Assembly: GCA_001599295.1 (NCBI GenBank)
Contig: BCGN01000003.1
Location: 1 to 64,000 of the forward strand
Direction of reading: 5' to 3'
Length of the DNA stretch: 64,000 nucleotides
From: Sporopachydermia quercuum
Lineage: Eukaryota
In this document: one piece after another, positions 7,498 to 62,814 of the stretch
Numbering within the stretch: position 1 is the first letter of the stretch
Layout: every line of letters starts with the position of its first letter
The notes under the pieces: generated by a model
The model's input: only the letters and a program-made list of their open reading frames with translations
The model's database searches: none
Told to the model about the DNA's origin: nothing
Position numbers and translations under genes: made by a program

Positions 7498-9153
7498 ATG
7501 GTACTTGAGAAGGTGAAAGAAACGTTCCGAAAAGGTCGTCTCATTGAGATTGACGATAAATTGATTGATGAAACATATTCAGGAGCAGAGATAGAATTAG
7601 ACAAAGGTGTTCGAAGTGTTGGATATGTTACCGCAATTTTCCTTATTTTCAACCGAATTATCGGTACAGGTATTTTTGCTACACCATCAACAATCTTCAC
7701 ATTATCAGGTTCAGCAGGATTTTCTATGATGTTATGGTTATGCGGTACTATTATTGCATTTTCTGGAATGCTGGTATTTATGGAGTTCGGTGTTGCTTTA
7801 CCGAGAAATGGTGGAGAAAAGAATTATTTAGAATTTGTTTATACTAAACCAAAGTTCTTCATAACATGTTTCTACGCTATCTATGTCTTCTTTCTAGGCC
7901 AAGCATCTGGTAATTCTATTGTGTTTGGAGAGTTTATCTTAAATGCTGCTGGTGTGGAAGTAACAAGATGGAATCAAAGAGGTGTTGGTATTGCATGTCT
8001 TTCATTTGCTTTTCTTATCCACGCCTTTTTCAAGAAGACAGGTATGGTTTTACAGAATGTGTTGGGTACATTCAAACTTGTTATTATTGTAATGATTTCC
8101 GTCATCGGATGGGTAGCATTGTCTGGAAAGCTTAATATTCCACCAGCACATAATTTTGATAATTCATTTGCAGGTACTTCAGGATCTGCTTATGGTGTCG
8201 TGACAGCCCTTTATAGTGTCATTTGGTCCTACCTTGGTTATTCCAATGCAAACTACGCATTAGGAGAAATTAAGGATCCTGTAAAGACATTAAAGGTTGC
8301 AGCACCTGTTGCATTGATTATCGTTGCGATCTTTTATATGTTTGTTAATGTTGCTTATTTTGCTGTTGTACCAGAAGCTGAGTTCAAAGCTTCTGGAACC
8401 ATTTTAGCAGCAAAGTTTTTCAATATAGTATTTGGTGAGGAAGCTGAAAAGGCTCTCTCGGTTATTGTTGCATTATCAGCTTTGGGAAATGTGATGGCCG
8501 TTACCTTTTCTCAGGGAAGACTTTTACAGCAGTTAGCAAGAGAAGGTGTTTTACCTTACTCTTCATTTTTTGCTTCCAGTAAACCTTTTAACTCTCCTGC
8601 TGCTGGTCTTTTTGAACAATACGTTGTATGTCTGATTATTATCGTTGGACCTCCACCAGGTGATGCTTTCGAGTTTATCATGAAGCTTCAATCATATCCT
8701 ATCAATGTTATTAATGCTCTTGTATCTGGTGGTTTGATTTATATATATATTCAAAAAAGAAAAGGTAACATCGAATGGAGTCCTCCATTTAGAGCTACTT
8801 TGCCCGTTGTTATTTTCTTCTTCTTATCAAATGTCTACCTAATTGCTGCACCATTTGTTCCCCCTAGTAACGGTGAAAATGTTTACAATGATCTACCATA
8901 CTGGCTACATTGTGTAGTTGGTATTGGCATTTTATTTCTTGGTGGGGTCTATTGGGTTTTCTGGGCTAGAGTCTTCCCCAAATTGTTGCATTACGAACTT
9001 ATAGTTACTCAAGTTGTCGGTGAAGATGGATTTTACAGAAACAATATCACCAAAAGAAGTACTAAAGCTATTAATGATGTTGAAGGAGATCCTGCCAATG
9101 CAAATTCCAATGATGATTCGAAAGAAGATATTGAAAAAGTCTCTATCAATTAA
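7498..9153 (+). CDS. MUP1: High-affinity methionine permease (APC superfamily, LAT family)
   Basis: 551-aa ORF with IFNRIIGTGIFATPS, PRNGGEKNYLE, WSYLGYSNANY and PPPGDAF motifs typical of Mup1-like permeases. Confidence 0.85.
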   Translation: MVLEKVKETFRKGRLIEIDDKLIDETYSGAEIELDKGVRSVGYVTAIFLIFNRIIGTGIFATPSTIFTLSGSAGFSMMLWLCGTIIAFSGMLVFMEFGVALPRNGGEKNYLEFVYTKPKFFITCFYAIYVFFLGQASGNSIVFGEFILNAAGVEVTRWNQRGVGIACLSFAFLIHAFFKKTGMVLQNVLGTFKLVIIVMISVIGWVALSGKLNIPPAHNFDNSFAGTSGSAYGVVTALYSVIWSYLGYSNANYALGEIKDPVKTLKVAAPVALIIVAIFYMFVNVAYFAVVPEAEFKASGTILAAKFFNIVFGEEAEKALSVIVALSALGNVMAVTFSQGRLLQQLAREGVLPYSSFFASSKPFNSPAAGLFEQYVVCLIIIVGPPPGDAFEFIMKLQSYPINVINALVSGGLIYIYIQKRKGNIEWSPPFRATLPVVIFFFLSNVYLIAAPFVPPSNGENVYNDLPYWLHCVVGIGILFLGGVYWVFWARVFPKLLHYELIVTQVVGEDGFYRNNITKRSTKAINDVEGDPANANSNDDSKEDIEKVSIN

Positions 9154-12100
9154 TCAAATGTTTATCATTAACTTATGTTTATGATTTAAAGGCTGGAGTT
9201 ATTTCGTGGCTTTTTTTATCTCAATCCTTTAATTTTTCTTTTTATTTTATAGACATTTGTTGAATGATTTTATGTTTTGCATTTTTACATACTAAATGAG
9301 TCTATAAAACAAATCAACCTTATGAGGTTGGTACTGTTCTTTATTTACCAATATTGTAGTAGTTTTTAAAGTTAAAACAACCTTGGAGACTAGAAGTCTT
9401 CCAACCTCCACATCAACTGATACCTTTCCAATGTCTCACTTTGTTTATCAGCAAAGACCATATCTGATTATTACAAGTAAAAAGATTAGTTTTCAATATT
9501 ACGAATTTGATGCAAAATTTTCATGCATAAATCGTAATACCAATGCTGGCTCATTTAAGAGGGGGTAGACTTTCTCTGAGGAGAAAAGACAAGGCTCAGA
9601 AAAACGTTAAAGATAAACGTTATTTCAACTTCCTTAAACAAAATAAAGCTTTAAACTTTCTGCACCATTCTCACCTCACAAATTAGTAGCCATTATCTTC
9701 ATCGAAGGGATAGATTGAAAATAAACACTAAAAGAAGAAACTGAAAACAAACTGAGGAGGTATAAACTAGGAAATCTACCAATATTTTTTATGATTATAT
9801 TCCTAGGGAAGTAACGTAGCATAAGTATAAATCCTCCACTTACTTGTTTTCAACCCAAAAGTAATCTATATGAAGCAGGAGATGTCTAGTTCAATAAAAC
9901 AAGTCGAAGATACAATTACCAGGAACATCTTAGGGGATCATGACACATTACAGATACTTGGTTTTATAGTTTCTAGAAAACTATGACTAGAGAACTGGCA
10001 TAAATAGCATAGTCTTAATGATTAGCTTACAGTCTTACCTCTGCTGATCTAGAATAGAAGCATCTCTTTGTTTAATTTATTATAGAAATTCACAACAAAA
10101 TCTAATAGTATTTATTACTAAAACCCCATTTAATATTAAAATACTTATTGCTCTCAAATTTATCTGGCTTAGACTTTGATATGGTGATTACACCTTACTT
10201 CAGATTAGCATTAATAACATTCCTTCAGCTTTTAGTCTTGATGCAGCTGCAGAGTTTTGGGAGGGTGTTTTTTGACTATTTCATATTGCTTTGGGGTATT
10301 GTCGATAAAGTCCTATTGATATCGCTATAAAAGTCTATAATGCAGATATTATAATATTAAGAACTTCTCTTTACTTATTGGAGTTGAGAACAAAACATTT
10401 GAGAGATAAGTATTTTCAAACAGATAGATTGAATATCTATTCAGTTTAATCTGAATGGTGTATAATCTCCAATAGCTAATATTATTTACTAATAATCTAT
10501 ATGTTTTCGTTTTTATTTATTTTTGTTTTTGAATCGCTTTCTGTTGGGAGGTATACAATTATTATAGCTTGACTTCAACTTTCTTATTGCTCTACTCCCT
10601 GACGAATGATACTTCTTGCAATCTATAGAATAAGCTTTGGTTTTATTGTTCATGCGATTAATCTTAACATATATCAAAGCTTAGTAGTCAATATATCATT
10701 CAGTGATAAGTGATTGGCTGCGACCTAAACTTATAGCTGATTCCTAATAATTTCGTATATTTACCTAATGCTCTACTTTAGTGTATAGTAAACGTCCACA
10801 AGTATATGATATTCCTTAGGAATAATGAAAATAAGCATTTTCTGGAAAAACGTTTATTATAATTGTTTTTAATGGTTTCAACTCAGACTTCGTGAAGAAT
10901 GCCTGCATGTGAAGGATTTAAAATATTTCATGCTTTCGAGAGATTCTATTCATTGACCATACTCTGGCTCATAAATCTATTACTTACGCAGGAAAGTCGC
11001 TAGCTCAGTAAACCTTTGTGGCATTTATCAATTAAAAAAACTTCTTTCTAAAGCGGCTCTATTAATACAATTGATTTTTATAATTCAATTTCAAATCAAA
11101 GCCTGTGTCAATTCTTAATACAGTGGAATAGATTGTAGAGACTTCAGTACTCTGAAGTTCAATGAAAAGTACTACGATGGAAAAACATCCGCTGAGATAA
11201 ATTGACTATTAATTGGCTAACAAAAATAATCCCATATTGTAGATTATTTCTGAAAATCTAGGAGCAAAAATAGTTACCAGTATTAAAGCCCAAGCTTTGA
11301 TAATAATCCTAGATGCATTCATTACACTGACTGATAATGAATGGTATTTAGAAAGTTTCCATTAGTCTATAAGTAATTTTCAACCTATACAAACACATTT
11401 GTAAAAACCTATGTACCAACTTTCCAAAGATTTAGCTGTCCAACATGATTTCCACCAGCAATTATTGGCAGTAATTAGTTTATTCTCATTTGAATCAAGC
11501 TAGGATATGGCGCAACACATCAAGCCCTTAAAGTAGTTGGAAGACTTACATATTTGAAGCACAATAATGTACGGCTTGGCAAACAGCTTTGATAAGGATG
11601 GGATTATGTCTCAAATATATATTCTGTCAAGTAAAGATCTGCATCATGTTGTGCTTTGTGCTTTTTCCTAGGTTTATTTTACCTGTATTTTAAGTAGAAG
11701 TATCACTATTGTCCATTTTTGATCAAAGGCAGCTGAAAGGTTNATTCTTTTCTTTTCAATAAAAGAAAATGTTACAGTGACAATTAATTTTCCTTGTTAT
11801 TTTCACTATTCTTTGTATTGAAACAAAGATTAGTTAATCAGATGATAGCATTCCCTTCTACTCAGATACAGATAGGGGCTACATTAGAGAGTAATTTGTA
11901 CCTCAGTCATTTTTGCTTACATTGCACTTCTATTCTGAACAAAACTATAATAATGATCTCAGCCATTACTGTTTTGGTAGATAGTAATCCCACATATAGT
12001 CAAAGGGAAAAACATTTCAGAAAGAAGAAAAAGGCAGAAGAAACTATCATATTCCCGTCTAAGGACATAAATCAGTTATATTATGATTCATAGTTCACTG

Positions 12101-14637
12101 ACTTTAATTATCAATCAATAATTTAACTAGCAATGCAGTGCCAGATCTTCAACGACTTCCAGTAATACTGGGTTAACGAAAGTATTTGATGAACCAACCA
12201 TTAAACGCATATTCTTAATGAAAACATTCTCACTAAGAATGAGAATCCAAAGAACCACTCTGATGTATAACACATATCACAAGTAGCAAACTTATTGGAG
12301 ATAGGGAGGCAGATAAGGTACAAATTCAAGTATTCTCAAGTTTAAATTTTCTAAAGATATTTGAAAAGCAAACAAGTCGTCTTTCTTTCATAGGTTTGCA
12401 TTATTTAGTTGTTCCAGAATTTACCGGTAATGAATAAATAATTTCTCCTGATCAAAGCATCTTTGTCGGCTCCTTTTTCACCTTCCCAACATTGATTTTC
12501 ATTACCAAAATGAGCACCACAATCAAAGAGCCTATGACAGATCATGTTTGCTTTGTAAATGGTCTTGTTGCAAAATCCTTTAGTTGTCACTTCCAATTAC
12601 CGAAGCCAACTAATTAAAAGATTTAGTACTGAGAGTTAAAGCAATTATTGTTCTACTTTCATGTATATTTAAAGAGATTATGAAATAAAACAAGAAAATG
12701 TACTTCAGGAAAACAATAATCAAATAATTCCTCAAAGACTGTCTGTAACATAATAAAAAATAACGAGACAGGCGACGCAGTAATATATTATCGGAATCAT
12801 TTGTGAATAACTTCCATAATCTATACTAATTATTTCAAAAAAAAGGAAAACCAATAGAAGTCTAAAGCAAAGCTTACTATTCCTTTGCGCGATGGGTACG
12901 GTACAATCATCAGATAAGTTAATGAAAAGTTTCCCCATTAAAACTTGTTGTCACTATAATACTACAAGAAACTATTCATGAAATCAGAATAGTACTCTTA
13001 GTAGAATGCAGTTTCCATCAGGACGTTGATCTTTCTTTCTTTCCTTTTTCTTGGGATTGGCTCTCATAATTATCTCACTCGAAAGACATGGATCTAAATT
13101 TTTAGAATCTAAGTTTTAATAATGTCCTACAGTAACTTGGTGTAAATTTAATGGATAACCAATAAAGTCCTATTTGCAGAAAAGTAATAGTGTGTCATTG
13201 TAATGAAGTTTAATTTAGGTTGCATAAACTCCACACTAGCTTCAAGTTAAACTGCAATAGTACACAATTTAAGTTGAGGATCCATCTCATTTGAATGAAA
13301 TGTTAGATTATTATATTCTTAAGTGACACAAGTTGATAAGTTTTCTGAAGCATGGACCGTTAAATCAGCAGCTAAAGGGTTGTTGACACACTAATTATTG
13401 CAAAGAATTATGCTTGCTCTACACGTATTTCTTCAGCACATATCAACACGCTCAACAAATCAATAATAAAATTCAGGTTTTCTATGCAAATTATTACTAA
13501 AACTAATGAGTGCCATCATTTAATTCATATGATGGTCATCAGGTTCTAGATTTCCTAAACTTCAGAACCTTGACATTTATAAGCATCGCAATCATTTCTT
13601 GATCGATTTATCATTTCCCTTGCAAGGTGGTCATTGAAAATATATATTATTACGACCTTGCTAGACAACGTGATCTCCTTGGAACAAAATTATTGTCACC
13701 TTTTAACAATTCTTCAAATACTGGTCTTCTGTTTAAAAAGAAGTAACTGGAAACTGTATACTGGATCAAGCGGAACAAGAGCCAGAAGATGATTATAAAT
13801 CAGAAAAAACTAGGGACATAGATTGTTATTCTCGCTCCGAATGAAAACAATTTATATAACTCAGTAAAAGTGACAGAAAAGTATTAAAGGTTATTCTTTC
13901 CTTATCTATGTCTAGAATCAGTCTACTTGTGAAGTTGATTGAGCTTTTAGCAAGCGAGAGGAACGTATTTGCTGGAAATAAACGATAAAACCACTAATTT
14001 AACGTTCTAACTTTATGCAATAGTATGCATGGATAAAAGTAAGGTTTTTGATACAGTAAAAGTAAGTAAAAATTTTATTCAATTTATAAGGTAATAATAT
14101 AATATAGAGATAAATAAAAGGAAAGAGCATAGAGTCTGATATAGCAAAATCAGTAATATTTAGACTTTCAGTAATCAATAATAAAGTAGTAAAATAATAA
14201 TACGATAAAATGATAAAATGATAAAACGATAAGAAAATATAGTCACACGAAAGCTAAATAGTATTCATATTATATTTCAATAAGCGACAGCATTTGACCT
14301 GACGTCTCGTCTCGTCCCATTCAGCCATGAACAAAAACTTTAAAGTTCAAGAGGGCGAAGTATAAGTAGAGAGATAACGTTTGACTACAAAGGGGTTTCG
14401 GGGATTCAAGCTTGAAAGCACTAAACTTTGAATGAAATGACACAATTTCTGCAAGAATGAATCAAATCAAGTAGATCCTAGTTACATTCGTCTTCCTTGC
14501 AGATATTGTAATTGAAAAGTTTGAATGTATGAATAAGAATTCCCAAGAACAAAATTTTTACAGGTGAACTTTTTTGGCTTACATTTATTAGCTTTTAGAA
14601 TTTAATCGATACATTTTTTCATTAAAACAAATAGCTT

Positions 14638-15816
14638 TTAAATAAGGAAAGGTTTTTCGGCCATTGGTGTTAATCTGAAGGCATGTTTTCTATGAGGAAC
14701 CTCATCACCAAGTAAACTAGTATGAGCCGTTCGTCGATTATCCCAAACAACTACGGTTCCGGGCTTCAATGATGCACGAGCATGGAATTCCTTACCTTGA
14801 GATATGTGATCATATAAAAATTTTAAAATATAGTCCGATTCTTGTTTCTTTAACTGTAGAATTCTTCTACAGAAAATAGGATTAACAAATAACGACCTCT
14901 GACCAGTTACAGGGTGCGTTCGCACAATTGGATGCTCACTGATAGTTAATCCACGTTTTATACCTTTTCCACCAAATTTGGATAACGTGTCCTTGCCTTG
15001 CTCAATTCCTGAGTGAATGACAGTTAAGTGCTCTAAAAATTTCTGGAAAATTGGAGACAGTAAATTGTAGGCTTCTACTGTATCAACAAAATTAACATCA
15101 CTCCCGTTCTCGGGCAGTTCTAAAACTCCCAAAAATGTCACACCAGATGGTTGTCTCTCAAATGAGATATCAGAATTCCATAATGATCGTTCAAAAGACG
15201 TAACTACATCTGGTTGGGAACTATCTCTGAGCTTTGGGCTATAAAAGCTACTTATCTCTGGATAGCCTTTCGGAGAACCTGCAGCAGGATGAATGTGTGG
15301 GGGACCGAAGTAATTCGAAAATTTGACGATATCATCCAATGGTTGATCTTTTAAATCTTGATCTCGAAAAACAACAAATCCTCTCTGCTCGACAAATAAT
15401 GCTAACTCGTCCTTTTGGGTATCGCTTAGTTTTGATAACTGAATTCCACTCACCTCAGTACCAAACCTGGGTGTGACTTCTGAAATCTTGATATCAGAGG
15501 AATGGAATAAGTGATGAAACGAGGGATCTGCTCTCTTTCCAACATCTTCATGCTCGAATGCCTGTGGAATTTCGTAGGTTATCCATTTCTGATGAAAAGG
15601 AAGAAACTGTGGATATAAAGCTCTTTCTGCTTCTTCGGGTGCTAGCACAAAATTTCCTTCTTCGTCCTCAACAACTTTATACCGAAATACCTGTATTGCA
15701 ACTAATCCATTGTTACTTATTCCATTTAGAGCCCCTTGGTCAACACTGCTAGAGACTTCTATGTTTTGCAATGATTTGAGGTTTTCAATTGCAGCAGGTG
15801 CACTTATTGTTTCCAT
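14638..15816 (-). CDS. Divergent JLP1/TauD-family dioxygenase-like protein with a degenerate active site (WNSD instead of WHSD)
   Basis: 392-aa intact ORF that aligns along its length to the three paralogs (GIQLSKL, HIHP, HPIVRTHPVTG, WDNRRTAH). The first Fe-ligand His is Asn. Confidence 0.85.
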   Translation of the reverse strand: METISAPAAIENLKSLQNIEVSSSVDQGALNGISNNGLVAIQVFRYKVVEDEEGNFVLAPEEAERALYPQFLPFHQKWITYEIPQAFEHEDVGKRADPSFHHLFHSSDIKISEVTPRFGTEVSGIQLSKLSDTQKDELALFVEQRGFVVFRDQDLKDQPLDDIVKFSNYFGPPHIHPAAGSPKGYPEISSFYSPKLRDSSQPDVVTSFERSLWNSDISFERQPSGVTFLGVLELPENGSDVNFVDTVEAYNLLSPIFQKFLEHLTVIHSGIEQGKDTLSKFGGKGIKRGLTISEHPIVRTHPVTGQRSLFVNPIFCRRILQLKKQESDYILKFLYDHISQGKEFHARASLKPGTVVVWDNRRTAHTSLLGDEVPHRKHAFRLTPMAEKPFLI

Positions 15817-22613: not shown

Positions 22614-22622
22614 TCACGTGAC
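22614..22622. promoter_or_regulatory. Cbf1-type E-box TCACGTGAC upstream of JLP1 paralog b
   Basis: Exact consensus match ~290 bp upstream of ATG 22910. Confidence 0.6.
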
Positions 22623-22909
22623 ATTTGTATGAAGAAAATTGTAATCTTTACATACAAAAAAGCATAAAGTTTATGTTTACAAGTATGTTTAGCTTCCGCA
22701 TTGAGCAATAATTTGCAACTCTATCTTAAAGAAAAAAGTATATAAGAAAGAATCACTTCCCGGAACTCTTTCTAAAGCAAATATTATCGTAAAGAGTGGA
22801 CGAGATATTAGCCTTACTATTGTCCTTTTCCATCAATTACTTTTTAGTCCCACTTAATAATCAGTTTTTGAAATTACTCATCTCAGGAAAAAAAATTATT
22901 AGTATCAAA

Positions 22910-24082
22910 ATGGCTCCAACTGCATCTGCCACTGTTACAGTAACAGAACAAAACGATCAAGCTCGCTTGTTAAAAGACAAGAAAGCTGAAGAGCTAAAGA
23001 ATTTGATTTACCCAGTAAAAACTTACGGACTAGAATACAAAACTGTTGAAGATGAAGAAGGAAATTTTGTTATAGACCCCGAAGAGGCAAAAGGAGTATT
23101 GTATCCTCATTTTTTGCCATTCCACCAGAAAACAATTACTCATGAGTTACCAGGAGAATTTACAATTGAAGATGTTGCTAAAAAAGCTGATCCTTCATTC
23201 AAAAATCTTTTTAACTCGGAAAACATCAAAAAGTCAAACATTACCCCCAAGTTTGGAACAGACCTTTCTGGTATTCAACTTTCCAAATTAAACGATGCTC
23301 AAAAGGATGAACTTGCTCTGTTCATCGAACAAAGAGGATTGGTTGTACTTCGTGATCAAGATTTGAAAGATCAACCTTTGGATGATATCGTCAAATTTGG
23401 NGAATATTTTGGTCCTCAACACATTCATCCAGCAACTCCTTCGCCAAAGGGATATCCTCAAATTCATCTTGTTTATAAGCCTGAAAAAGAGGTGATCGCG
23501 GATCAAATCTTTTCGGACAAACTTAACAGTCTGGGATGGCACAGTGATATATCTTTTGAAGAACAACCAGCTTCGTTATCGTTTCTAGCAATTCTAGAAC
23601 TACCAGAGAGCGGTGGTGATACTTTGTTTGCTAATACTGCTGAAGCTTACAACAGACTGTCCCCAGCACTACAAAAGTTCTTGGAAGGGTTGACCGTCAT
23701 TCACTCCGGCATTGAACAGGGAGAAATGACTTTGAATAAGTTTGGTGGTAAAGGAATTAAGCGCGGATTAGCAATTAGTGAGCATCCCGTTGTTCGTACT
23801 CATCCAGTAACAGGAGAAAGGGCATTATATGTTAACCCTATCTTTTCAAGACGAATTCCTCAATTGAAGAAAGAAGAGTCTGATTACCTATTAAATTTCC
23901 TTTACGACCACATTTCTAAAGGACAAGATTTTCAAGCCAGAGCCAAATGGGAAGTAGGAACTGTCGTAGCCTGGGATAATAGGAAGACTGTGCATAGTCC
24001 TTTATTCGATTGGAGCTCCTCTGAAAGACGGCACCTATTTAGATTGACACCATTGGGCGAGAAACCATTCTTTAAGCCATAA
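22910..24082 (+). CDS. JLP1: Fe(II)/2-oxoglutarate-dependent sulfonate dioxygenase (JLP1/TauD family), paralog b
   Basis: Intact WHSD...GGDT...WDNRKTVH...RRHLFR motifs. Start placed at ATG 22910 (MAPTASAT, matches paralogs) rather than the track's GTG 22796. Confidence 0.9.
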   Translation: MAPTASATVTVTEQNDQARLLKDKKAEELKNLIYPVKTYGLEYKTVEDEEGNFVIDPEEAKGVLYPHFLPFHQKTITHELPGEFTIEDVAKKADPSFKNLFNSENIKKSNITPKFGTDLSGIQLSKLNDAQKDELALFIEQRGLVVLRDQDLKDQPLDDIVKFXEYFGPQHIHPATPSPKGYPQIHLVYKPEKEVIADQIFSDKLNSLGWHSDISFEEQPASLSFLAILELPESGGDTLFANTAEAYNRLSPALQKFLEGLTVIHSGIEQGEMTLNKFGGKGIKRGLAISEHPVVRTHPVTGERALYVNPIFSRRIPQLKKEESDYLLNFLYDHISKGQDFQARAKWEVGTVVAWDNRKTVHSPLFDWSSSERRHLFRLTPLGEKPFFKP

Positions 24083-24406: not shown

Positions 24407-24414
24407 CACGTGAC
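24407..24414. promoter_or_regulatory. Cbf1-type E-box CACGTGAC upstream of JLP1 paralog c
   Basis: Exact consensus (GTCACGTG on minus) ~270 bp upstream of ATG 24684, similar spacing to paralog b. Confidence 0.6.
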
Positions 24415-24683: not shown

Positions 24684-25844
24684 ATGGCTCCAACAGTGAC
24701 TGAACAGAGTTTCACTAGTGGTGACACTACTGAACAATTATTGAAAGATCAAAAGGCTGAAGAGCTCAAGAAACTGGTATCAGGAGCTCAAACCTATGGT
24801 TACAACTACAAGTCCGTTGAAAATGAAGATGGTGATTTCGTTGTAGCTCCTGAAGAAGCCGAAGGAGCACTGTATCCACAGTTTTTACCTTCTCACCAAA
24901 AAGCCATTACACACCAGGTGCCAGGAGAATTTACAATTGAAGATGTTGCTAAAAAAGCTGATCCTTCATTCAAAAATCTTTTTAACTCGGAAAACATCAA
25001 AAAGTCAAACATTACCCCCAANTTTGGAACAGACCTTTCTGGTATTCAACTTTCCAAATTAAACGATGCTCAAAAGGATGAACTTGCTCTGTTCATCGAA
25101 CAAAGAGGATTGGTTGTACTTCGTGATCAAGATTTGAAAGATCAACCTTTGGATGATATCGTCAAATTTGGNGAATATTTTGGTCCTCAACACATTCATC
25201 CAGCTACGGGCTCGCCCAAGGGTTACCCCCAAATTCATGTTGTTTATAGGGCCAAGCAAGAAGGTGCCACCACCAACATATTCAAGGATCGTTTGAACAG
25301 TATAGCATGGCATAGTGATATTTCCTTTGAAGAGCAGCCGGCGGCTTTATCTTTTTTAGCAATCCTAGAGTTGCCAGATAGTGGTGGTGACACTATATTT
25401 GCTAATACTGCTGAAGCTTACAACAGATTGTCTCCAGCACTACAAAAATTCCTTGAAAGCTTAACTGTTATTCATTCAGGACTTGAACAAGGAAAGAACA
25501 CTCTAAATAGATTTGGTGGTAAAGGAATTAAGCGTGGATTGGCAATTAGTGAGCATCCCGTTGTTCGTACTCATCCAGTAACAGGAGAAAAGGCATTGTT
25601 TGTGAATCCTGCGTTCTCAAGACGAATTCCCCAATTGAAGAAGGAAGAGTCTGATTACGTGTTGAATTTCCTTTACGATCACATTTCTAAGGGACAAGAT
25701 TTCCAAGCCAGAGCCAAATGGGAAGTAGGAACTGTCGTAGCCTGGGACAATAGAAAAACTGTTCACAGTGCATTGTTTGATTGGGATACTGTTGAGAGAA
25801 GACATGCCTTTAGATTGACTCCCCTTGGAGAGAGGCCGTTCTAA
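24684..25844 (+). CDS. JLP1: Fe(II)/2-oxoglutarate-dependent sulfonate dioxygenase (JLP1/TauD family), paralog c
   Basis: Intact WHSD, GGDT, WDNRKTVH and RRHAFR motifs. Tandem with paralog b. First ATG is at 24684. Confidence 0.9.
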   Translation: MAPTVTEQSFTSGDTTEQLLKDQKAEELKKLVSGAQTYGYNYKSVENEDGDFVVAPEEAEGALYPQFLPSHQKAITHQVPGEFTIEDVAKKADPSFKNLFNSENIKKSNITPXFGTDLSGIQLSKLNDAQKDELALFIEQRGLVVLRDQDLKDQPLDDIVKFXEYFGPQHIHPATGSPKGYPQIHVVYRAKQEGATTNIFKDRLNSIAWHSDISFEEQPAALSFLAILELPDSGGDTIFANTAEAYNRLSPALQKFLESLTVIHSGLEQGKNTLNRFGGKGIKRGLAISEHPVVRTHPVTGEKALFVNPAFSRRIPQLKKEESDYVLNFLYDHISKGQDFQARAKWEVGTVVAWDNRKTVHSALFDWDTVERRHAFRLTPLGERPF

Positions 25845-26419
25845 ATTAGTATGGGGTTAGTATGGTTAAAGAGTTGTTAACCATATAACTATATTATTAG
25901 AGACAAGTTTACTATTCTGTTATAGTTTAAAGACTAAGGATGTTTGTTAAATATACGTCCCAACTTAATATGTAAGTAGAATAAATATTGAATTTAAATT
26001 GCCATAGGGCACGAAGCTACCTGAACTTGAACTATAGGTTTAGAAGAGTGTTTATTGGATGTTATCTGCTTCCCTACTTTCTGCTCTCGTTTATTGCAGC
26101 TCCCCCTACGGATATTTCAGCTATTCAAAAGTGCTCACATACATAAGCTACCCAAGTAAATCTTGTCAGTCAACTTTGAGCATAAAAACTAAAAATAGCG
26201 CTGATAAAGTCACTTAAAGTATAATATAACTTACTAATAGAATGAAATCCCAACCTTCGTTGTATTGTTTTAACATATACATTTTACTATATGGCGTCAC
26301 AAAACCATTTCAACATTCTTTAACTTAAAAAATTGTACTATTGAATCTATAGAAACTAGACAAAAGAGAAACGAGAAAAGCAAAATCCGAAGCTACTTAA
26401 GTCGGCGAATTACAACANC

Positions 26420-29748: not shown

Positions 29749-30921
29749 ATGGCCCCAACTGTGTCTGCTACTGTCAGCGTTGTTGAGCAAGATCAAGAGA
29801 GACAACTCTTGAAGGATAAAAGAGCTGAAGAACTGAAGAATCTCGTAACACCCAGAGCTCTTTATGCATATCCATATAAAACAGTTGAAGATGAAGATGG
29901 AAACTTTGTGATTGACCCTGAAGAAGCAAAAAGTGCATTGTATCCTCGATTCTTGCCTACCCATCAAAAAGAAATCACTCATGAAATCCCTGATGAGTTC
30001 GAAATTGAGGATGTAGGCAAACGAGCTGATCCTTCATTCAAAAATCTTTTTAACTCGGAAAACATCAAAAAGTCAAACATTACNCCCAAGTTTGGAACAG
30101 ACCTTTCTGGTATTCAACTTTCCAAATTAAACGATGCTCAAAAGGATGAACTTGCTCTGTTCATCGAACAAAGAGGATTGGTTGTACTTCGTGATCAAGA
30201 TTTGAAAGATCAACCCTTCGAAGATATCATCAAGTTTAGTGAGTACTTTGGTCCTCAGCATGTCCACCCTGCCTCTGGTGCGCCAAAAGGATTTCCAGAA
30301 ATTCATGTTGTTTATAGACCTCCGGTAGAGATAGACCATGATAGAGTTTTTGCTGAGAAGTTGAATACCATTGGGTGGCACAGTGATGTTTCTTACGAGA
30401 GACAACCTGCATCTTTGTCTTTCCTCGCTATTCTTGAATTGCCTGAATCTGGTGGTGACACCTTGTTTGCTGATACTACTGAAGCATACAACAGACTTTC
30501 TCCTGCTCTTCAAAAATTCCTTGAAGGATTAACTGTGGTTCACTCTGGTCTAGAGCAAGGACAGGAAGCCTTGAGAAAGTTTGGAGGTAAAGGTATCAAA
30601 CGTGGATTAGCTATCAGTGAGCATCCTGTTGTTAGGACACATCCAGTAACCGGTACAAAATCCTTATATGTTAATCCTACATTTTCAAGGCGAATTGTAC
30701 AACTAAAGAAAGAAGAATCAGACTGGTTATTGAACTTTTTGTATGATCACATTTCTAAAGGACAAGATTTTCATGCAAGAGCTAAGTGGGAAGTTGGCAC
30801 TGTTGTAGCTTGGGACAACAGACGTACAGTTCACTCTGCCTTATTTGACTGGTATTCTCCTGAAAGAAGACACGCTTTCAGATTGACTCCTTTAGGTGAG
30901 AAACCCTTTTTCGAAGCTTGA
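29749..30921 (+). CDS. JLP1: Fe(II)/2-oxoglutarate-dependent sulfonate dioxygenase (JLP1/TauD family), paralog d
   Basis: 390 aa with WHSDVSYE, GGDT, WDNRRTVH and RRHAFR motifs intact. Divergently transcribed from the SOA1-like gene. Confidence 0.9.
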   Translation: MAPTVSATVSVVEQDQERQLLKDKRAEELKNLVTPRALYAYPYKTVEDEDGNFVIDPEEAKSALYPRFLPTHQKEITHEIPDEFEIEDVGKRADPSFKNLFNSENIKKSNIXPKFGTDLSGIQLSKLNDAQKDELALFIEQRGLVVLRDQDLKDQPFEDIIKFSEYFGPQHVHPASGAPKGFPEIHVVYRPPVEIDHDRVFAEKLNTIGWHSDVSYERQPASLSFLAILELPESGGDTLFADTTEAYNRLSPALQKFLEGLTVVHSGLEQGQEALRKFGGKGIKRGLAISEHPVVRTHPVTGTKSLYVNPTFSRRIVQLKKEESDWLLNFLYDHISKGQDFHARAKWEVGTVVAWDNRRTVHSALFDWYSPERRHAFRLTPLGEKPFFEA

Positions 30922-31452
30922 GTATTTGAGGTGTGAGAATTGTGATGAATGCTTAAAGTATATTGAATATACTCTTGTCAATTTTTAGATAGGCTATTTG
31001 TTTTTTTGTTTTCTAATCTATTCATCATTAGTCATAGAATCTGAATTAAGTTGAACTTGAGTAATAAAATTCTTAGTGTTAGTTGAAATTGAATAATAAA
31101 ATTACATCTACTATTTTGAATTCCATTTATTTTGTTTTTCGAAAAGTGGTAGTTAGGCTAACATGTTTATTAAGATTATGATCTTGTAGAAATGATAGAA
31201 TTCATGGTATTTGCAATTCATCGATACTCTAAAATATATAGTTGAACCTTATTACTCAAACCTTAGACCTTCAATTACTTTTACAAGTTGGAGATTAACT
31301 TTCAATTTATGCTTGTTATCAATTACAATGGGTGTACCAAATTGGTCAATTAAACATATTGAAAAGTCTAGAAGTTTGTTTATTCTCTAGTTTTTACATA
31401 TCAATTTCTCAAAATTCCTGCGCAGATCTGATGCCTATATGTTTCAATGTTC

Positions 31453-33129
<1,677 letters not shown>

Positions 33130-33580
33130 CTACTGTAACAAATGAACAGTTATATGTATTGCAATTGAGTTATAATAGCAATTGGTATGAACGATCCACT
33201 CTTTAGACTTTTCTTGGGCCTAAAGATGTACAATAATAAGAAAGTTCAAGTTGAGCGGTTAGTACATAAAGGATTTTTGTATGGAAGATGGGATTAAAAC
33301 TTTTATAAATCCGGAGACTTTACATCTTTTATAACATGCTAAAATAGAGAGAAAGNAAGAAAATTGGAAACCAGATCTCCGAAACCCAAAACTTGTGGGG
33401 ACCACACAGTTCTCCCGTTTATTTCGCCAAACTCAATATATTAACATACTTACTTTGGGTACTTCAACTCCTATTATTGTCAGAGAAATCAATGAAATAA
33501 TAGCTCTCCTGATATGATTCATCTTGGTCTAAGTATTGAATTATTGAGTGGCTGTTTTGCTTTATGTAAGATATTTCAAT

Positions 33581-33587
33581 TCACGTG
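33581..33587. promoter_or_regulatory. Cbf1-type E-box TCACGTG in the arylsulfatase / MFS divergent promoter
   Basis: Exact TCACGTG ~460 bp upstream of the arylsulfatase ATG. Confidence 0.5.
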
Positions 33588-35211
33588 GTAGTATGCAATT
33601 TGATTTTAGAGTTGCATCATCAATCTTAAAGTTTCAACGTCTAAATTTCAACTAGCATTCCTTGTAGGATCTTCCTAAAAGTCCGGATGTCCATTCAACG
33701 ACTTTAGACTCATTATCGCGGAGATTCGGCGTTGCAGCCAACTTGTCAATTTAATGATTAAATAATTTTAAATGAACGCAGAGTTAAATTTATACCATAT
33801 TTGAATACAAGGGAGATATCATTAGAAGAAGTCAAAAGTAACTCTAACCATATTCGGAAAAATAACGGTATCTNGCATTACGAAAAGGGTAGGTAAGATT
33901 ACGCCATTTCTGCCTAAGAAAACAAATAGTTCAAATCTTAAGTTTAACTTAAACCATCGGACATTCGCACTGTGGATTGATTTGCAAGAATTCATGTTTC
34001 GATAATTAGCACACTCATAAACCCGAAAAAAAAAAAAAAGAAAGTAGAAGATGGACCAGTTTAATATTAAGACAAATAAATATACTTGAAGATCTCATCA
34101 CATTAAAGCTTAACAAGTGAGTGGCAAGCAAAACGATGTAGCTATCAATATTATGGTCCATATAAAAAGGCTGATGCCTCCCAATTGCTTCAATATTTTC
34201 ATGAAAGTGGGCGTGATTATTTGTTTCAATTGGGTTCACCTCAAAGTTCGTATTTTAATATTTCTCCATATACTTTAAAGCCATTTTGTCTCCCTTGCAT
34301 TCAATTGGCTATCTCAATTCTGTGTCTTTTAACCTTATGGCAAGTTTTGGGTTATGCAGCTGTTGTCTTATTATGAAAGAAGCCTTCCAAGACGACCCCC
34401 TATCACAATGCAAACATAAACCATTGCCACCTCTTTCATTCATTTAGTAGAGTGAGAGGAATACCATAAAAGAAAGAGGACAAGAGCATTCCTCTGCTTA
34501 ATACTGAGTTGGTTAGCTTTGCAGAATTCTTTTTTCCAGGCAAGTAATAGCTCATTATCATAGGTTTCCAGTTGCTTACATTTGAATTGACAGTGCGGGC
34601 CATTTAGGAATTAGTATTCTGTNCTGTAAGTCATTTCCTCCTACTAAGCTGTAGAAAAGCCACCAAAACTTGGCGATAATAACCAAAAATAGAAAGTATG
34701 CCACTGGGTTGCAATATTGAATGACTCTAGCATTTCTTATCGTTTTACCTTCTTCAGAAAGTAATTCAAATCAATAACTAAGTCTTAATAAGCGGTTTAT
34801 CATTTAGACTTTCAAAGTCATGTGATTAGTAACAATAATCATTGATATTGTCACAATTCGGGTGGCTCCTTGATGATTTGCTTGAGGCTTTTGGGGAGCC
34901 ACATTAACAGGAAAGTTAACTGTGCAGAAAGGAACTAAGCTTCCAAACTTAACCTTAANTTTACCAGTAAACCGTTCCATTAAGTGAATAAAGTTATTCA
35001 ACCGCTTGAAAATGCTTTCATTTTTCATAAAAAACTGGATAGAAAAATCAAATATAAATGATGATAAAAAGAACATTCTAAGAAAATGTTGTTTTCAGAA
35101 ACCACTAATAGTAAAAAAGAGAAAAAACAGCTTCATTCATACTTATTGTTGCATCAACGTTAATTTCTTATTGTTGATTTAGAGGTATTTCAGTGTCCAT
35201 AGATATACAGG

Positions 35212-36906
35212 ATGTCATCAAGTGATAAATTAGAAAAAATTGCTACTACAGAACTGAAGAGTTCCGGATCATCAATTGATTCGTTAGAAGATAAGAAATT
35301 GNATGACTTTCCAAAGACGTACATTTATGATGCTGATAAAGACAGAGTTACTTTTTTAGAAAAGAACTGGACAGAGGAAGAAGAGAGAAGAGCATACAAG
35401 AAACTTGATTTCACTATCATACCTCTATTATTCTTCGCTTTCTTCCTATTACAGCTTGATCGTGGTAATATNNNNNNTGCNTTGACATCATCGCTNANAG
35501 AAGATGTTGGGTTAGATAATAATAGAATCAACGCTGGTACTGCTCTTTTCAATGTCGCTATTGTCATTTTTGANATTCCTTCAAATGTTATGCTTCAAAA
35601 ACTAGGACCTTCAAGATGGTTAGGCGGACAGGTTTTTGCTTGGTCTCTGGTTGCTACCTTACAATCTCTGATGACCAATTATGCTGGATTTTTGGTANCA
35701 AGATTCTTCATGGGTGCTATGGAAGCTGGATTTATTCCCGGTGCCCTTTACTATATNAGTACATGGTATACTAAGGGAAGGTTAACTNCNAGATATAACT
35801 TNTATTTCTTAGGTAATATTACTGCNNCNGCTTGTTCTGGTTTGATTGCGGCTGGTATCCTTAACACAGTTGCTGGGGCTCATGGACTTGCTGGTTGGAA
35901 GTGGATTTTCATCATTGAAGGTGCTGCTGGTCTCGGTTATGGTATTATCTTTTTTTTCTTGATTCCTGAATCTGCTAGTCATCCCAAACCACTCTTTGGA
36001 AATCTTAGATATCTCACCGAGCGTGAATCATACATTATCAGTTCAGCTGTCTTAATTGATGATCCAGAAAAGATTAACAACAAAACACACATATCTGGAA
36101 AGGATATTCTTGATACCTTTAAGCAATGGAGGGTTTGGTTGCATTTCTTGTACACTATGGTCTTTATGCAAAATATTCAATCGCTGAGTACCTATGTTCC
36201 TTCTATTGTTGTCTCTTTAGGATACAAGGCTGTTCAAGCTAATGCTATGGCATCAATTGGTCTATGGGGTGCTTTAGTTATGTTGCTTCTAATGACTAAA
36301 TGGGCAAACCATATCCAATGCCGGGGTGTTCCAATGATTTTCTTGGCTGCCTGGCAAATGACTTGGCAAATTGTCTTGTTTTCAGTTGCGCGTACATCGA
36401 AGAATAAAGTCAAGTATGCTATGTTGACACTTCTACAAGTTTCTTCTGCTAATGGGCATGTGCTGAATACTTCATATGTGTCAATGAATTTGAAGAAGCC
36501 TGCTCATAGGAGTGTAGCACTTGCTTTGATGGTTATGTCTGCCAATATGGCAGGTATCTGTGCCGGTCAGATTCTTAGAACAAATGATGCTCCACTTTAT
36601 CACACGGCATTTTTGGCTCTTATGATTCTATCGATTTGTGCAGTTGTTGTAGCTGTGTTCTTGTTAACACAATATGTTATCAGTAACAAAAAGTTAAATG
36701 AAAAATATCCAAATATCAGTCCAGAATTGCTTGAGAGATCTAAAGAAGGCACTAACTACCTTAACTCCGTGGTCTTGATTGGCTCTGAAAAAGCATTGGC
36801 TAACGAAGAAAAAGTCAGAGAAAAAATCAAGGAAGTTAATGTACATGGGTTGACTGTTAAGCAGACGTATGTTGCAGCCGATGAAGTCTTCAGATACAAG
36901 CTATAG
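35212..36906 (+). CDS. MFS DAL5/ACS-family transporter, copy 1 (possibly alternative-sulfate-transporter-like)
   Basis: 564 aa with LLQLDRGN, EIPSN-like, RFFMGAMEAGFIPG, GWKWIFIIEG and DAPLY motifs. Contains several N bases. Substrate is inferred from context only. Confidence 0.85.
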   Translation: MSSSDKLEKIATTELKSSGSSIDSLEDKKLXDFPKTYIYDADKDRVTFLEKNWTEEEERRAYKKLDFTIIPLLFFAFFLLQLDRGNXXXXLTSSXXEDVGLDNNRINAGTALFNVAIVIFXIPSNVMLQKLGPSRWLGGQVFAWSLVATLQSLMTNYAGFLVXRFFMGAMEAGFIPGALYYXSTWYTKGRLTXRYNXYFLGNITXXACSGLIAAGILNTVAGAHGLAGWKWIFIIEGAAGLGYGIIFFFLIPESASHPKPLFGNLRYLTERESYIISSAVLIDDPEKINNKTHISGKDILDTFKQWRVWLHFLYTMVFMQNIQSLSTYVPSIVVSLGYKAVQANAMASIGLWGALVMLLLMTKWANHIQCRGVPMIFLAAWQMTWQIVLFSVARTSKNKVKYAMLTLLQVSSANGHVLNTSYVSMNLKKPAHRSVALALMVMSANMAGICAGQILRTNDAPLYHTAFLALMILSICAVVVAVFLLTQYVISNKKLNEKYPNISPELLERSKEGTNYLNSVVLIGSEKALANEEKVREKIKEVNVHGLTVKQTYVAADEVFRYKL

Positions 36907-38890: not shown

Positions 38891-40576
38891 ATGTCGGTAA
38901 AATCAGGCCAAATGAGCGAGAAAGATATCCTAAAGGATTCTGATCTCTCAGTTAACTCTCTTGAGAAATCAGTTGCATATCCTCACACATATATATTCAA
39001 TGCTGATACTGAAGAAACAATAGTGTTAGAAAAGAACTGGACAGAGGAAGAAGAGAGAAGAGCATACAAGAAACTTGATTTCACTATCATACCTCTATTA
39101 TTCTTCGCTTTCTTCCTATTACAGCTTGATCGTGGTAATATNNNNNNTGCNTTGACATCATCGCTNANAGAAGATGTTGGGTTAGATAATAATAGAATCA
39201 ACGCTGGTACTGCTCTTTTCAATGTCGCTATTGTCATTTTTGAAATTCCTTCAAATGTTATGCTTCAAAAACTAGGACCTTCAAGATGGTTAGGCGGACA
39301 GGTTTTTGCTTGGTCTCTGGTTGCTACCTTACAATCTCTGATGACCAATTATGCTGGATTTTTGGTATCAAGATTCTTCATGGGTGCTATGGAAGCTGGA
39401 TTTATTCCCGGTGCCCTTTACTATATAAGTACATGGTATACTAAGGGAAGGTTAACTGCAAGATATAACTTTTATTTCTTAGGTAATATTACTGCNNCNG
39501 CTTGTTCTGGTTTGATTGCGGCTGGTATCCTTAACACAGTTGCTGGGGCTCATGGACTTGCTGGTTGGAAGTGGATTTTCATCATTGAAGGTGCTGCTGG
39601 TCTCGGTTATGGTATTATCTTTTTTTTCTTGATTCCTGAATCTGCTAGTCATCCCAAACCACTCTTTGGAAATCTTAGATATCTCACCGAGCGTGAATCA
39701 TACATTATCAGTTCAGCTGTCTTAATTGATGATCCAGAAAAGATTAACAACAGAGCACACATCGGTGGAAAGGATATTCTTGATACCTTTAAGCAATGGA
39801 GGGTTTGGTTGCATTTCTTGTACACTATGGTCTTCATGCAAAATATGCAATCATTGATGACCTATATCCCTTCTATCGTTGTCTCTTTAGGATACAAGGC
39901 TGTTCAAGCTAATGCTATGGCGTCAATCGGTGGATGGGGTTCTATACTTATGCTGATTCTAATGACTAGACTCGCAGCTTATATCAATTCTAGAGGTATT
40001 CCAATGATTATTTTAGCAACCTGGCAAATGATTTTCCAAATTGCCTTGTTTTCTGTTTCTTTGACTTCCCGTACAAAAGTCAAATTTGCATTACTTACAT
40101 TGTTAACCGTTTCTGGTGCCAATGGTCATGTTTTGAATACTTCATGGATTTCAATGAATATGAGAAAACCAGCTCATAGAAGTGTAGCACTTGCTTTGAT
40201 GGTTATGTCTGCCAATATGGCAGGTATTTGTGCTGGCCAAATTCTTAGAACAAATGATCTTCCATTATATCGTACAGCGTTTATGGCACTTATGATTTTG
40301 TCAATATGCGCCGTAATCATTAGTGTTATACTGTTCACACAATATTTCATCAGTAATAAGAAGTTGGATAAGAAATTCCCACCTGTTAGTGAAGAACACT
40401 TGGAAGAAATTGCCAAATATAACAATTATATTCAATCATTCGTTATTGTTGGATCTGAGAAGGCATTGTCTAATGAAGAACGAATTGAAGAGAAGATCAA
40501 GGAATCCAATGACTTGAACTTACCTGTGAAACAAACATACATTGAAACTGATGCAATCTTCAGATATAGATTGTAA
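38891..40576 (+). CDS. MFS DAL5/ACS-family transporter, copy 2 (tandem paralog)
   Basis: 561 aa. The N-terminal domain is near-identical to copy 1 and the C-terminal half is diverged. Confidence 0.85.
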   Translation: MSVKSGQMSEKDILKDSDLSVNSLEKSVAYPHTYIFNADTEETIVLEKNWTEEEERRAYKKLDFTIIPLLFFAFFLLQLDRGNXXXXLTSSXXEDVGLDNNRINAGTALFNVAIVIFEIPSNVMLQKLGPSRWLGGQVFAWSLVATLQSLMTNYAGFLVSRFFMGAMEAGFIPGALYYISTWYTKGRLTARYNFYFLGNITXXACSGLIAAGILNTVAGAHGLAGWKWIFIIEGAAGLGYGIIFFFLIPESASHPKPLFGNLRYLTERESYIISSAVLIDDPEKINNRAHIGGKDILDTFKQWRVWLHFLYTMVFMQNMQSLMTYIPSIVVSLGYKAVQANAMASIGGWGSILMLILMTRLAAYINSRGIPMIILATWQMIFQIALFSVSLTSRTKVKFALLTLLTVSGANGHVLNTSWISMNMRKPAHRSVALALMVMSANMAGICAGQILRTNDLPLYRTAFMALMILSICAVIISVILFTQYFISNKKLDKKFPPVSEEHLEEIAKYNNYIQSFVIVGSEKALSNEERIEEKIKESNDLNLPVKQTYIETDAIFRYRL

Positions 40577-62724: not shown

Positions 62725-62814
62725 TCAATTCATCTTTCCAATTCACCTTTCCAATTCACCTTTCCAATTCACCTTTCCAATTCACCTTTCCAATTCACCT
62801 TTCCAATTCACCTT
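62725..62814. repeat. 13-bp minisatellite (CCAATTCACCTTT), ~7 copies
   Basis: Five perfect copies at 62738-62802, flanked by one degenerate and one near-complete copy. Confidence 0.9.

Follow-up and report, generated by a model that had tools for sequence, protein, structure and literature searches.

How do genes for the import of organic sulfur compounds and genes for the release of sulfur from them come to stand side by side in a budding yeast, and what would such a neighborhood do? The question is raised by contig BCGN01000003.1 of the Sporopachydermia quercuum assembly GCA_001599295.1, the first 64,000 nucleotides (nt) of which were analyzed and are referred to here as the window. Between positions 7498 and 40576, the window carries ten consecutive genes, designated g1 to g10, whose predicted products are transporters, sulfatases, and dioxygenases of the TauD/Jlp1 type. 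Most soil sulfur is held in sulfonates and sulfate esters, and its use by yeasts is poorly mapped. We consider it fairly probable that the ten genes make up an array, probably subtelomeric, for organosulfur uptake and intracellular sulfur release. Combining importers, two sulfatase families, and sulfonate dioxygenases, this 33-kilobase (kb) block could help to assign substrates to orphan DAL5-family transporters and Jlp1 paralogs, and it provides an opportunity to examine whether functional clusters at the ends of yeast chromosomes arise through selection or by chance.

Gene Content and Arrangement

A scan with the standard genetic code detected 18 open reading frames (ORFs) of at least 150 amino acids (aa) in the window, ten of which are the genes of the array (Table 1). 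All ten are intact and intronless, and they represent six sulfur-related families in an unbroken run. The first-pass annotation, a reading of the same DNA made from its letters and ORFs, had described ten genes in a row, three divergent gene pairs, and no unrelated gene between them. Its coordinates proved exact, the families that it named agree with the Pfam assignments (AA_permease_2, four TauD domains, the three-domain alkylsulfatase set, three MFS_1 domains, and one Sulfatase domain), and the divergent pairs g2/g3, g6/g7, and g8/g9 were all confirmed. As to intervening genes, nothing recognizable was found in the intergenic stretches: among 77 stop-to-stop ORFs of at least 55 aa located between genes in positions 1 to 45000, none reached a Pfam cutoff; tblastn searches with the window's own proteins revealed no paralog relics, all 35 high-scoring segment pairs lying within the listed ORFs; and the searches for tRNA genes and Rfam families gave no matches. 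The intergenic stretches are 0.5 to 5.5 kb long and the coding density is ∼45% (15,057 of 33,079 bases); the 5.5-kb gap between g1 and g2 (positions 9154 to 14637) could still hold a gene of unknown family. The repeat analysis reported no intergenic repeat family, and the promoters are not repeated.

The window is AT-rich and yeast-like, with a guanine-plus-cytosine (GC) fraction of 0.31 to 0.41 per 2-kb step, except for 58 to 62 kb, where it is 0.50 to 0.54. At 11 of the 15 sites encoded by CTG in g6, g8, and g10, Leu is the commonest residue of the homologs, so the sequences indicate that the standard code applies, with CTG read as Leu, and that the host is neither a CTG-Ser nor a CTG-Ala yeast. 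In a large protein collection, the closest relatives of g8, g6, and g10 are 72 to 73%, 66 to 67%, and 53 to 57% identical, respectively; such low top values indicate a species without a close annotated relative in that collection.

Table 1. Positions of the genes and other features within the window (functional names are predictions)
Feature	Position	Strand	Remarks
Telomere-like tandem repeat	1..101		9.2 perfect copies of 11-nt CAACTACCTCC, from the very first base of the window
g0, MCT-like MFS	2472-3839		Flank
g1, LAT-family amino acid permease, 551 aa	7498..9153	+	Pfam AA_permease_2 1.9e-98
g2, divergent TauD paralog, 392 aa, noncanonical active site	14638..15816	-	Pfam TauD 1.2e-48
g3, SdsA1/Bds1-type metallo-beta-lactamase alkylsulfatase (SulfAtlas S3), 648 aa	18375..20321	+	Three Pfam domains
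Cbf1-type E-box TCACGTGA	22614..22621		∼295 bp upstream of g4
g4, TauD/Jlp1-type Fe(II)/2-oxoglutarate sulfonate dioxygenase, 390 aa	22910..24082	+	Pfam TauD 4.3e-58
Gene-conversion tract of g4, g5, and g7	23185..23376	+	∼Codons 101-150, 100% identical in all three
E-box CACGTGA	24407..24413		∼277 bp upstream of g5; CACGTGACAT in common with g4 site
g5, TauD/Jlp1-type dioxygenase, 386 aa, tandem to g4	24684..25844	+	Pfam TauD 8.2e-59
g6, Soa1 (YIL166C)-like DAL5/ACS-family MFS, 571 aa	26420..28135	-	Pfam MFS_1
g7, TauD/Jlp1-type dioxygenase, 390 aa, divergent from g6	29749..30921	+	Pfam TauD 4.6e-62
g8, type I (S1) arylsulfatase, CSPTR, 556 aa	31453..33123	-	Pfam Sulfatase 4e-53
E-box TCACGTG	33581..33587		g8/g9 divergent promoter, ∼459 bp from g8
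g9, DAL5/ACS-family MFS, 564 aa, divergent from g8	35212..36906	+	Pfam MFS_1 3.8e-26
Gene-conversion tract of g9	35356..35961	+	Identical to ∼39026-39631 of g10; ∼codons 51-250; ends approximate
g10, DAL5/ACS-family MFS, g9 paralog, 561 aa	38891..40576	+	Pfam MFS_1 8.3e-29
Sugar transporter	43162-44670		Flank
Zn2Cys6 transcription factor	45264-47258		Flank
Alcohol dehydrogenase	49303-50373		Flank

TauD-Family Dioxygenases

The TauD domains of g2, g4, g5, and g7 score 166.7 to 210.8 bits against a Pfam gathering cutoff of 27. The best match of g4 among solved structures is taurine dioxygenase, with 142.7 bits to the Escherichia coli TauD protein (1gqw) versus 95.4 bits to AtsK, which speaks against its assignment to the AtsK-type alkylsulfate dioxygenases (SulfAtlas family S2). 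By alignment-counted positions, g4 retains the equivalents of TauD residues H70, H99, D101, H255, R266, and R270, of which we take H99, D101, and H255 to bind iron, R266 to bind 2-oxoglutarate, and H70 and R270 to contact the sulfonate. The g5 and g7 proteins are the same as g4 at the iron triad and the Arg positions, and the equivalents of H70 and R270 are present in all four copies; those of N95 and Y73, presumably the residues that contact the taurine amine, are not kept in g4. The g4, g5, and g7 enzymes are thus best read, from these similarities, as sulfonate dioxygenases. The SulfAtlas database, in which four sulfatase families are defined, describes family S2 as bacterial only (PMC5066984), and a review of fungal sulfate-ester use, which covers three enzyme families, gives no fungal TauD-type enzyme for which sulfate-ester cleavage has been demonstrated (PMC5857272). 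The earlier description of the locus as combining three mechanistic classes of desulfation enzyme is therefore overstated: with TauD a closer relative than AtsK, what the locus combines is two sulfatase families and sulfonate dioxygenases.

The pattern of an HxD...H triad with two Arg residues is found in g4, g5, and g7 and is broken in g2. The latter reads WNSD for WHSD, with Asn (an AAT codon, read directly) at the position of an iron-ligand His, and it has Lys at the equivalent of R266, the 2-oxoglutarate Arg. In a set of 68 full-length sequences representing its nearest relatives, the first of these columns contains His in 62 and Asn in none, and the second contains Arg in 62 and Lys in none; for the 469 superfamily proteins of a SulfAtlas alignment, the conservation of this His and Arg is given as 99% and 98%, respectively (PMC5066984). 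Because both replacements affect columns that are strongly conserved among its relatives, g2, its frame intact, is unlikely to be a working dioxygenase and is probably either inactive as such or changed in function.

Sulfatases

The g3 protein combines the Lactamase_B, Alkyl_sulf_dimr, and Alkyl_sulf_C domains with an HSHLDH metal-binding motif, the features expected of an SdsA1/Bds1-type enzyme, and aligns over its full length with PSdsA (4nur/7tl5; 688 bits) and SdsA1 (2cfu; 557 bits). Bacterial and archaeal genomes were scanned for relatives of g3, and 80 of the 194 found, to which all the following counts refer, were compared together with their neighborhoods within 4 kb. Their identity to g3 is 40 to 60%, and the best matches come from Pseudomonas, Caballeronia, Paraburkholderia, Buttiauxella, and Achromobacter, with up to 60% over the full length in the first four of these genera. 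This fits the reported origin of the Saccharomyces cerevisiae BDS1 gene by transfer from proteobacteria (PMC5303821, PMC5857272), and g3 probably provides one more instance of a eukaryote retaining an alkylsulfatase of bacterial type.

The g8 protein scores 181.1 bits against the Sulfatase family PF00884 and 626.6 bits, over residues 4 to 541, against the Pseudomonas aeruginosa arylsulfatase 1hdh. Its CSPTR motif is that of the S1 family, with the Cys aligned with the formylglycine position of 1hdh. The best yeast homologs of g8 are 72 to 73% identical to it, and many others are 60 to 73% identical.

The likeness of g3 and g8 to Pseudomonas enzymes, combined with the reported history of BDS1, might suggest the transfer into the yeast of an entire bacterial operon or island for sulfur scavenging, an idea to which hardly any credence can be given. 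Within 4 kb of the g3 homologs, an arylsulfatase homolog is found in only 1 of 80 cases and a TauD homolog in 0 of 80; the transporters of the array are fungal-type MFS proteins; the GC content of the cluster genes (37 to 41%) matches that of genes g11 to g13 (∼37 to 38%); and the arylsulfatase has the numerous yeast homologs just mentioned. At most g3 alone looks acquired, to judge from these comparisons. Bacterial sulfate-starvation loci, such as tauABCD and the ats and sds genes of Pseudomonas, draw on the same three enzyme superfamilies for the same purpose, but they are operons with ABC importers and almost never bring these families together near a g3 homolog, and the yeast array is one assembled in a eukaryote.

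Transporters and a Proposed Route of Sulfur

An N-terminal hydrophobic signal sequence was seen by eye in none of the enzymes of the array, which would therefore act inside the cell and need importers. Four genes could provide these. The g1 protein scores 450.7 bits against NCBIfam TIGR00911 (L-type amino acid transporter), under the cutoff of 701.8; its best solved relatives are SLC7 light chains, and it belongs to the LAT family, which we take to be that of yeast MUP1. The g6 protein scores 122.5 bits against TIGR00893, under the cutoff of 395. Among its best 120 matches, the best named ones come from Geotrichum and Magnusiomyces and are 59 to 66% identical, and one match (59% identical) carries the source name "similar to S. 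cerevisiae YIL166C"; a search for a solved-structure relative of g6 found none. The Soa1-like proteins P0145, P0158, and P0220 of Magnusiomyces paraingens carry the consecutive tags SAPINGB_P001901, P001902, and P001903, which suggests a tandem transporter array in that species. The g9 protein scores 136.3 bits against TIGR00893, also under the cutoff, and g9 and g10 are 28% identical to g6. The best matches of g10 are 53 to 57% identical and bear the source names "putative allantoate permease" or "uncharacterized transporter"; the protein atlas was uninformative on both g10 and g14, an ORF without an assigned family. The Soa1 transporter itself has been reported to carry sulfonates and choline sulfate (PMC5303821).

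From these assignments a route can be proposed in which g6 would import sulfonates, choline sulfate, or sulfur oxyanions, g9 and g10 would import further organic anions, and g1 would bring in methionine or cysteine-type amino acids. Inside the cell, g4, g5, and g7 would oxidize the carbon adjoining the sulfonate group, with release of sulfite, g3 would hydrolyze primary alkyl sulfates, and g8 would hydrolyze aryl or choline sulfate to yield sulfate. Sulfite and sulfate would then enter the ordinary assimilation pathway, which would be encoded outside the window. The g6/g7 and g8/g9 genes would represent transporter-enzyme pairs on common divergent promoters.

The same genes could in principle serve purposes other than sulfur supply, such as the use of taurine-like compounds for nitrogen or carbon, the detoxification of detergents or phenolic sulfates, the import of allantoate or vitamins, or the action of the TauD enzymes on non-sulfur substrates. 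The solved relatives of g4 do include phenoxypropionate, 2,4-D, and ScoE-type enzymes, which act on non-sulfur substrates; the source names of DAL5/ACS-family members include allantoate, pantothenate, and biotin transporters; and the presumed amine contacts of TauD are not kept. We nevertheless regard a role of this kind as quite improbable, since taurine dioxygenase is the solved structure that g4 matches best and the presumed sulfonate contacts persist in every TauD copy, since two dedicated sulfatases lie in the same run, and since GATAAG nitrogen-control sites are no denser in the cluster promoters than elsewhere. All the families concerned are, moreover, sulfur-starvation genes in the three other yeasts discussed next.

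Comparison with Known Systems

Reading the array as one for sulfur scavenging, as the first-pass annotation did, is coherent with what has been reported for homologous genes. In Candida albicans, five JLP1 homologs, the arylsulfatase gene AYS1, SOA1, and MUP1 are induced by sulfur starvation, and JLP11, JLP12, AYS1, SOA1, and MUP1 are listed as bound by Met32 (PMC13170222). The same families are Met4-dependent in Candida parapsilosis (PMC11502921), and BDS1, JLP1, YIL166C, and YCT1 of S. cerevisiae fall within the Met32/Met4 group of genes (PMC3408425). Most single mutants of the C. albicans JLP paralogs were reported to have no phenotype (PMC13170222).

The differences lie mainly in organization. 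S. cerevisiae has the same enzyme and transporter families, including an alkylsulfatase of the proteobacterial type, and its regulon members are co-induced through Met32/Met4 (PMC3408425). Its BDS1 gene adjoins SOA2 (YOL164W with YOL162W/YOL163W), a pairing reported from four Saccharomyces species (PMC5303821). However, that pairing is of two genes only, there is no arylsulfatase, JLP1 is single, and the members are on different chromosomes, whereas the present array consists of ten contiguous genes of six families and shows no enrichment of the canonical Met31/32 site. The two Candida species are similar in that the same families (JLP1 homologs, arylsulfatases, SOA1, SEO1-like MFS proteins, and MUP1) are present in multiple copies (five JLP homologs in C. 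albicans; four dioxygenases and two arylsulfatases in C. parapsilosis) and respond to sulfur starvation. They differ in that the genes are dispersed: in C. albicans, JLP12 is on chromosome R, JLP11 and MUP1 are on chromosome 1, AYS1 is on chromosome 3, and SOA1 is on chromosome 7 (PMC13170222), and in C. parapsilosis the gene numbers belong to the 1, 2, 4, 7, and 8 series, with SOA1 adjoining another DAL5-family gene (PMC11502921). FMNH2 monooxygenases, for which this window has no gene, also operate in both Candida species, and an SdsA1-type enzyme is not among the genes of their regulon lists that were consulted (PMC13170222, PMC11502921). The clustering seen in S. quercuum is unusual, as the genes are dispersed in all three of these species.

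Smaller groupings are found in other fungi. JLP1 orthologs of Basidiomycota and Eurotiomycetes adjoin a predicted sulfonate transporter (PMC5303821), and in Schizosaccharomyces octosporus the arylsulfatase gene SOCG_01906 adjoins genes for a sulfonate dioxygenase (SOCG_01905) and an alcohol dehydrogenase (PMC7144085). These neighbor sets are pairs or triplets that their authors do not call clusters, and none combines all the families. A scan of metagenomes yielded 80 loci, nine of which look fungal (L001 to L007, L013, and L040) and are all short. In one of them, L002 (positions 2481 to 6114), a TauD homolog and a Soa1-like gene are arranged divergently, as in the g6/g7 module; a TauD neighbor was found in none of the other eight, and a sulfatase neighbor in none of the nine. 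The first-pass annotation knew of no comparably complete yeast cluster, and the literature search agrees: a description of a multifamily sulfur cluster in budding yeast was not found, subscription papers being outside the search. Only two-gene pairings were found in print, and the array is an expanded variant of these known pairings. The DAL and GAL clusters and the subtelomeric MAL families are other cases of related nutrient-use genes kept together in budding yeast, some of them at chromosome ends. The present array differs from them in serving sulfur, in being looser, given its coding density, and in containing several paralogs.

Contiguity of the Assembly

An array containing TauD and MFS paralogs might owe its existence to false joins between unlinked genes. 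The short-read contigs do break in g4, g5, and g7, and ambiguous bases (N) occur at matching positions of g9 and g10. These runs of N, at 35472-35499 and 39142-39168, lie inside the tract in which the two genes are 100% identical. The window carries 71 scattered N; outside these runs they stand singly, about once per kb, and the pattern suggests that ambiguous or heterozygous base calls were masked, not that the assembly has gaps.

Within positions 22800 to 32700, 99% of the sampled words are present in three sequencing runs from two studies; the assembly may have been built from these runs, which therefore do not amount to independent support. From 14000 to 33873, the contigs of two runs (X1 and X2) agree at every base, save for one 8-base deletion at 14204, carried by X1 but absent from X2, which amounts to one unit of an 8-nt tandem repeat (ATAAAACG) at 14197-14232. 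Single contigs extend from ∼74 (X2) or ∼782 (X1) to 23179, covering g1, g2, g3, and the start of g4; from 23947 to 24950; from 25718 to 30053, covering the end of g5, g6, and the start of g7; and from 30186 to ∼35385, covering the rest of g7, g8, and the start of g9. In both runs the breaks are confined to the TauD paralogs g4, g5, and g7, and each separates a TauD 5' part from a TauD 3' part. As the ends to be joined are the 5' and 3' parts of these copies only, any rejoining keeps the same genes linked. The 192-base-pair (bp) piece common to g4, g5, and g7 has ∼2.4 times the depth of its neighbors in both runs, as expected for three copies, all of them in the window. The junction between g9 and g10 lies outside the covered stretch. 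An artifact of assembly appears highly improbable as the explanation of the array. The worry about misassembly voiced in the first-pass annotation is eased as far as the linkage from g1 to the start of g9 is concerned, and persists for the order of the pieces across g4, g5, and g7, which rests on the original assembly.

Chromosome-End Position and Duplication History

The window opens with an 11-nt tandem repeat whose C-rich strand reads inward from the end, the complementary G-rich strand being without C, and the X2 contig starts inside it. The start of the window can therefore be read as a chromosome end. The CAACTACCTCC unit found no match in the literature, which returned only unrelated primer sequences. 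In this species it probably forms the telomeres, which would make the array subtelomeric, 7.4 to 40.6 kb from the end. The S. cerevisiae genes BDS1/SOA2 and SOA1 are likewise situated close to chromosome ends.

The paralogs within the array are diverged, with protein identities of 82% for g4 and g5, 77 to 81% for g7 versus g5 or g4, ∼65% for g2 versus g4, g5, or g7, and 81% for g9 and g10. Apart from the short identity tracts, synonymous sites are saturated or nearly so. For the g4-g5 pair, the synonymous divergence (dS) is 1.14 and the ratio of nonsynonymous to synonymous divergence (dN/dS) is 0.13; for g9 and g10 outside their identity tract, the values are 1.11 and 0.21. In the other five of the six TauD pairs dS is saturated and could not be computed, so these duplications cannot be dated. 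Taken with the tracts of complete identity (Table 1), these values indicate old duplicates maintained by purifying selection, between which gene conversion has recently acted. The array would have grown by old tandem duplications, maintained by purifying selection and locally homogenized by gene conversion, and would also have recruited the proteobacterial-type alkylsulfatase g3. The terminal repeat, the noncanonical g2, the old duplicates with their conversion tracts, and the bacterial likeness of g3 are all new relative to the first-pass annotation.

A chromosome-end location, missed in that annotation, can offer a nonadaptive route to clustering, and passive subtelomeric accumulation is the main rival to be weighed. 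The enzymes would have the same roles, each gene would be regulated alone, and adjacency would have no selective value. The terminal repeat and the distance of the array from it would suit this explanation, as would the tandem paralogs with their conversion tracts, the low coding density with long and dissimilar intergenic regions, the flanking families, which fit a chromosome-end region, the similar location of the S. cerevisiae homologs, and the lack of a promoter motif common to all members in the motif tests described below. Against it, six sulfur-related families in an unbroken run of ten genes exceed what duplication explains. Divergent enzyme-transporter pairs recur, in L002 and in the BDS1-SOA2 and JLP1-transporter pairs of other fungi (PMC5303821). 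The duplicates, finally, are old and constrained, and the arrangement has therefore lasted. Passive accumulation is accordingly judged a possibility to be taken seriously but a rather doubtful one, and an array with a common role in organosulfur use is preferred.

Promoters and Regulation

The Met31/32 site is a hallmark of organosulfur genes in S. cerevisiae, C. parapsilosis, and C. albicans (PMC3408425, PMC11502921, PMC13170222). Nine promoter regions of the cluster were searched for this and other motifs, in comparison with six control regions and with shuffled sequences (400 or 1000 shuffles). The AACTGTGG motif occurs four times in the window, always within ORFs. With up to one mismatch, AAACTGTGG occurs in one of the nine promoter regions, a count equaled by 309 of 400 shuffles. 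RBTGTGGYKB is likewise found in one region (at 29010, in the g6/g7 promoter; equaled by 292 of 1000 shuffles), and AAYTGTGGCT is found in none of the nine.

The E-box CACGTG gave a different result, being found in three of the nine cluster regions versus none of the six controls; one in 1000 shuffles reached three, and none of 1000 reached the cluster count for the longer CACGTGA. The window has a fourth E-box, at 41538, which falls in none of the promoter regions tested. The E-boxes of g4 and g5 have CACGTGACAT in common and stand at similar distances from their genes, in promoters that are otherwise dissimilar; they may be one inherited ancestral element, which would leave two independent sites. 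Upstream of g1, g2, and g3 there is no E-box.

Several other candidates were set aside. With up to one mismatch, TCACGTGA is found in six of the nine regions (reached by 0 of 400 shuffles), three of the six being CATGTG variants and not E-boxes. The top 8-mer, the GGAAACC-like GGGAAACC (again with up to one mismatch), is found in seven of the nine regions versus two of the six controls, and 1 of 400 shuffles reached this; chosen post hoc among 32,896 8-mers, it is not significant. Its sites, a lead only, are in the promoter regions of g1, g2, g4, g6/g7, g8, g9, and g10. The de novo search also returned GATA-like 7-mers, which were dropped in view of the density of GATAAG mentioned above. The CYS3/MetR-type motif ATGRYRYCAT occurs once, upstream of g3.

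A number of these observations weigh against the organosulfur array as proposed. The co-regulated sulfur-starvation island of the first-pass annotation is for now an expectation: Met31/32-type motifs are not enriched and CACGTG is confined to three of the nine regions, with the g4 and g5 sites perhaps of one origin and the first three genes having none. Induction of the array under sulfur limitation through the Met4 system is still to be expected, an expectation drawn from the homologs in other yeasts. The substrates suggested for g1, g9, and g10 are inferred from family membership, with scores that fall below the NCBIfam cutoffs. The four JLP1/TauD genes counted earlier hold as TauD-domain genes, with only g4, g5, and g7 appearing catalytically canonical. 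According to a review, fungal arylsulfatases appear to be without the formylglycine modification (PMC5857272), which bears on the activity to be expected of g8. The chromosome-end location, as discussed, adds to the same side. The apparent scarcity of Met31/32 sites, if confirmed, would point to rewired sulfur control in this lineage.

A more far-reaching interpretation would see here the largest nutrient-scavenging cluster yet found in a budding yeast, a long-lived and selected organosulfur supercluster, built at a chromosome end from vertically inherited genes and a bacterial-type alkylsulfatase, with transporter-enzyme modules on bidirectional promoters. Sulfur limitation would turn on all its genes together, through the E-boxes or an unknown factor and not through the Met31/32 site of Saccharomyces and Candida, and g2 would have been retained as a binding or regulatory protein. 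We consider this version, taken as a whole, unlikely.

Flanking Genes and Other Features of the Window

The gene for a Zn2Cys6 transcription factor begins 4.7 kb past the last gene of the array, with the sugar transporter gene in between, and its product could regulate the array or its own neighbors. Farther on, an ORF of 531 aa at 53314-54909 (GC content, 48%) has no Pfam or NCBIfam match and gave weak leads in the protein atlas (0.88, an unnamed ascomycete cluster). A kinesin-motor gene at 57871-61383 (1170 aa) is a compositional outlier, with a GC content of 54% and CTG making up 48 of its 116 Leu codons; the neighboring genes have GC contents of 37 to 48% and 0 to 13 CTG codons. An antisense ORF of 290 aa lies within the kinesin gene at 58971-59843, and at 62726-62814, within an intergenic stretch, a 13-nt unit (CAATTCACCTTTC) is repeated 6.8 times in near-perfect tandem.

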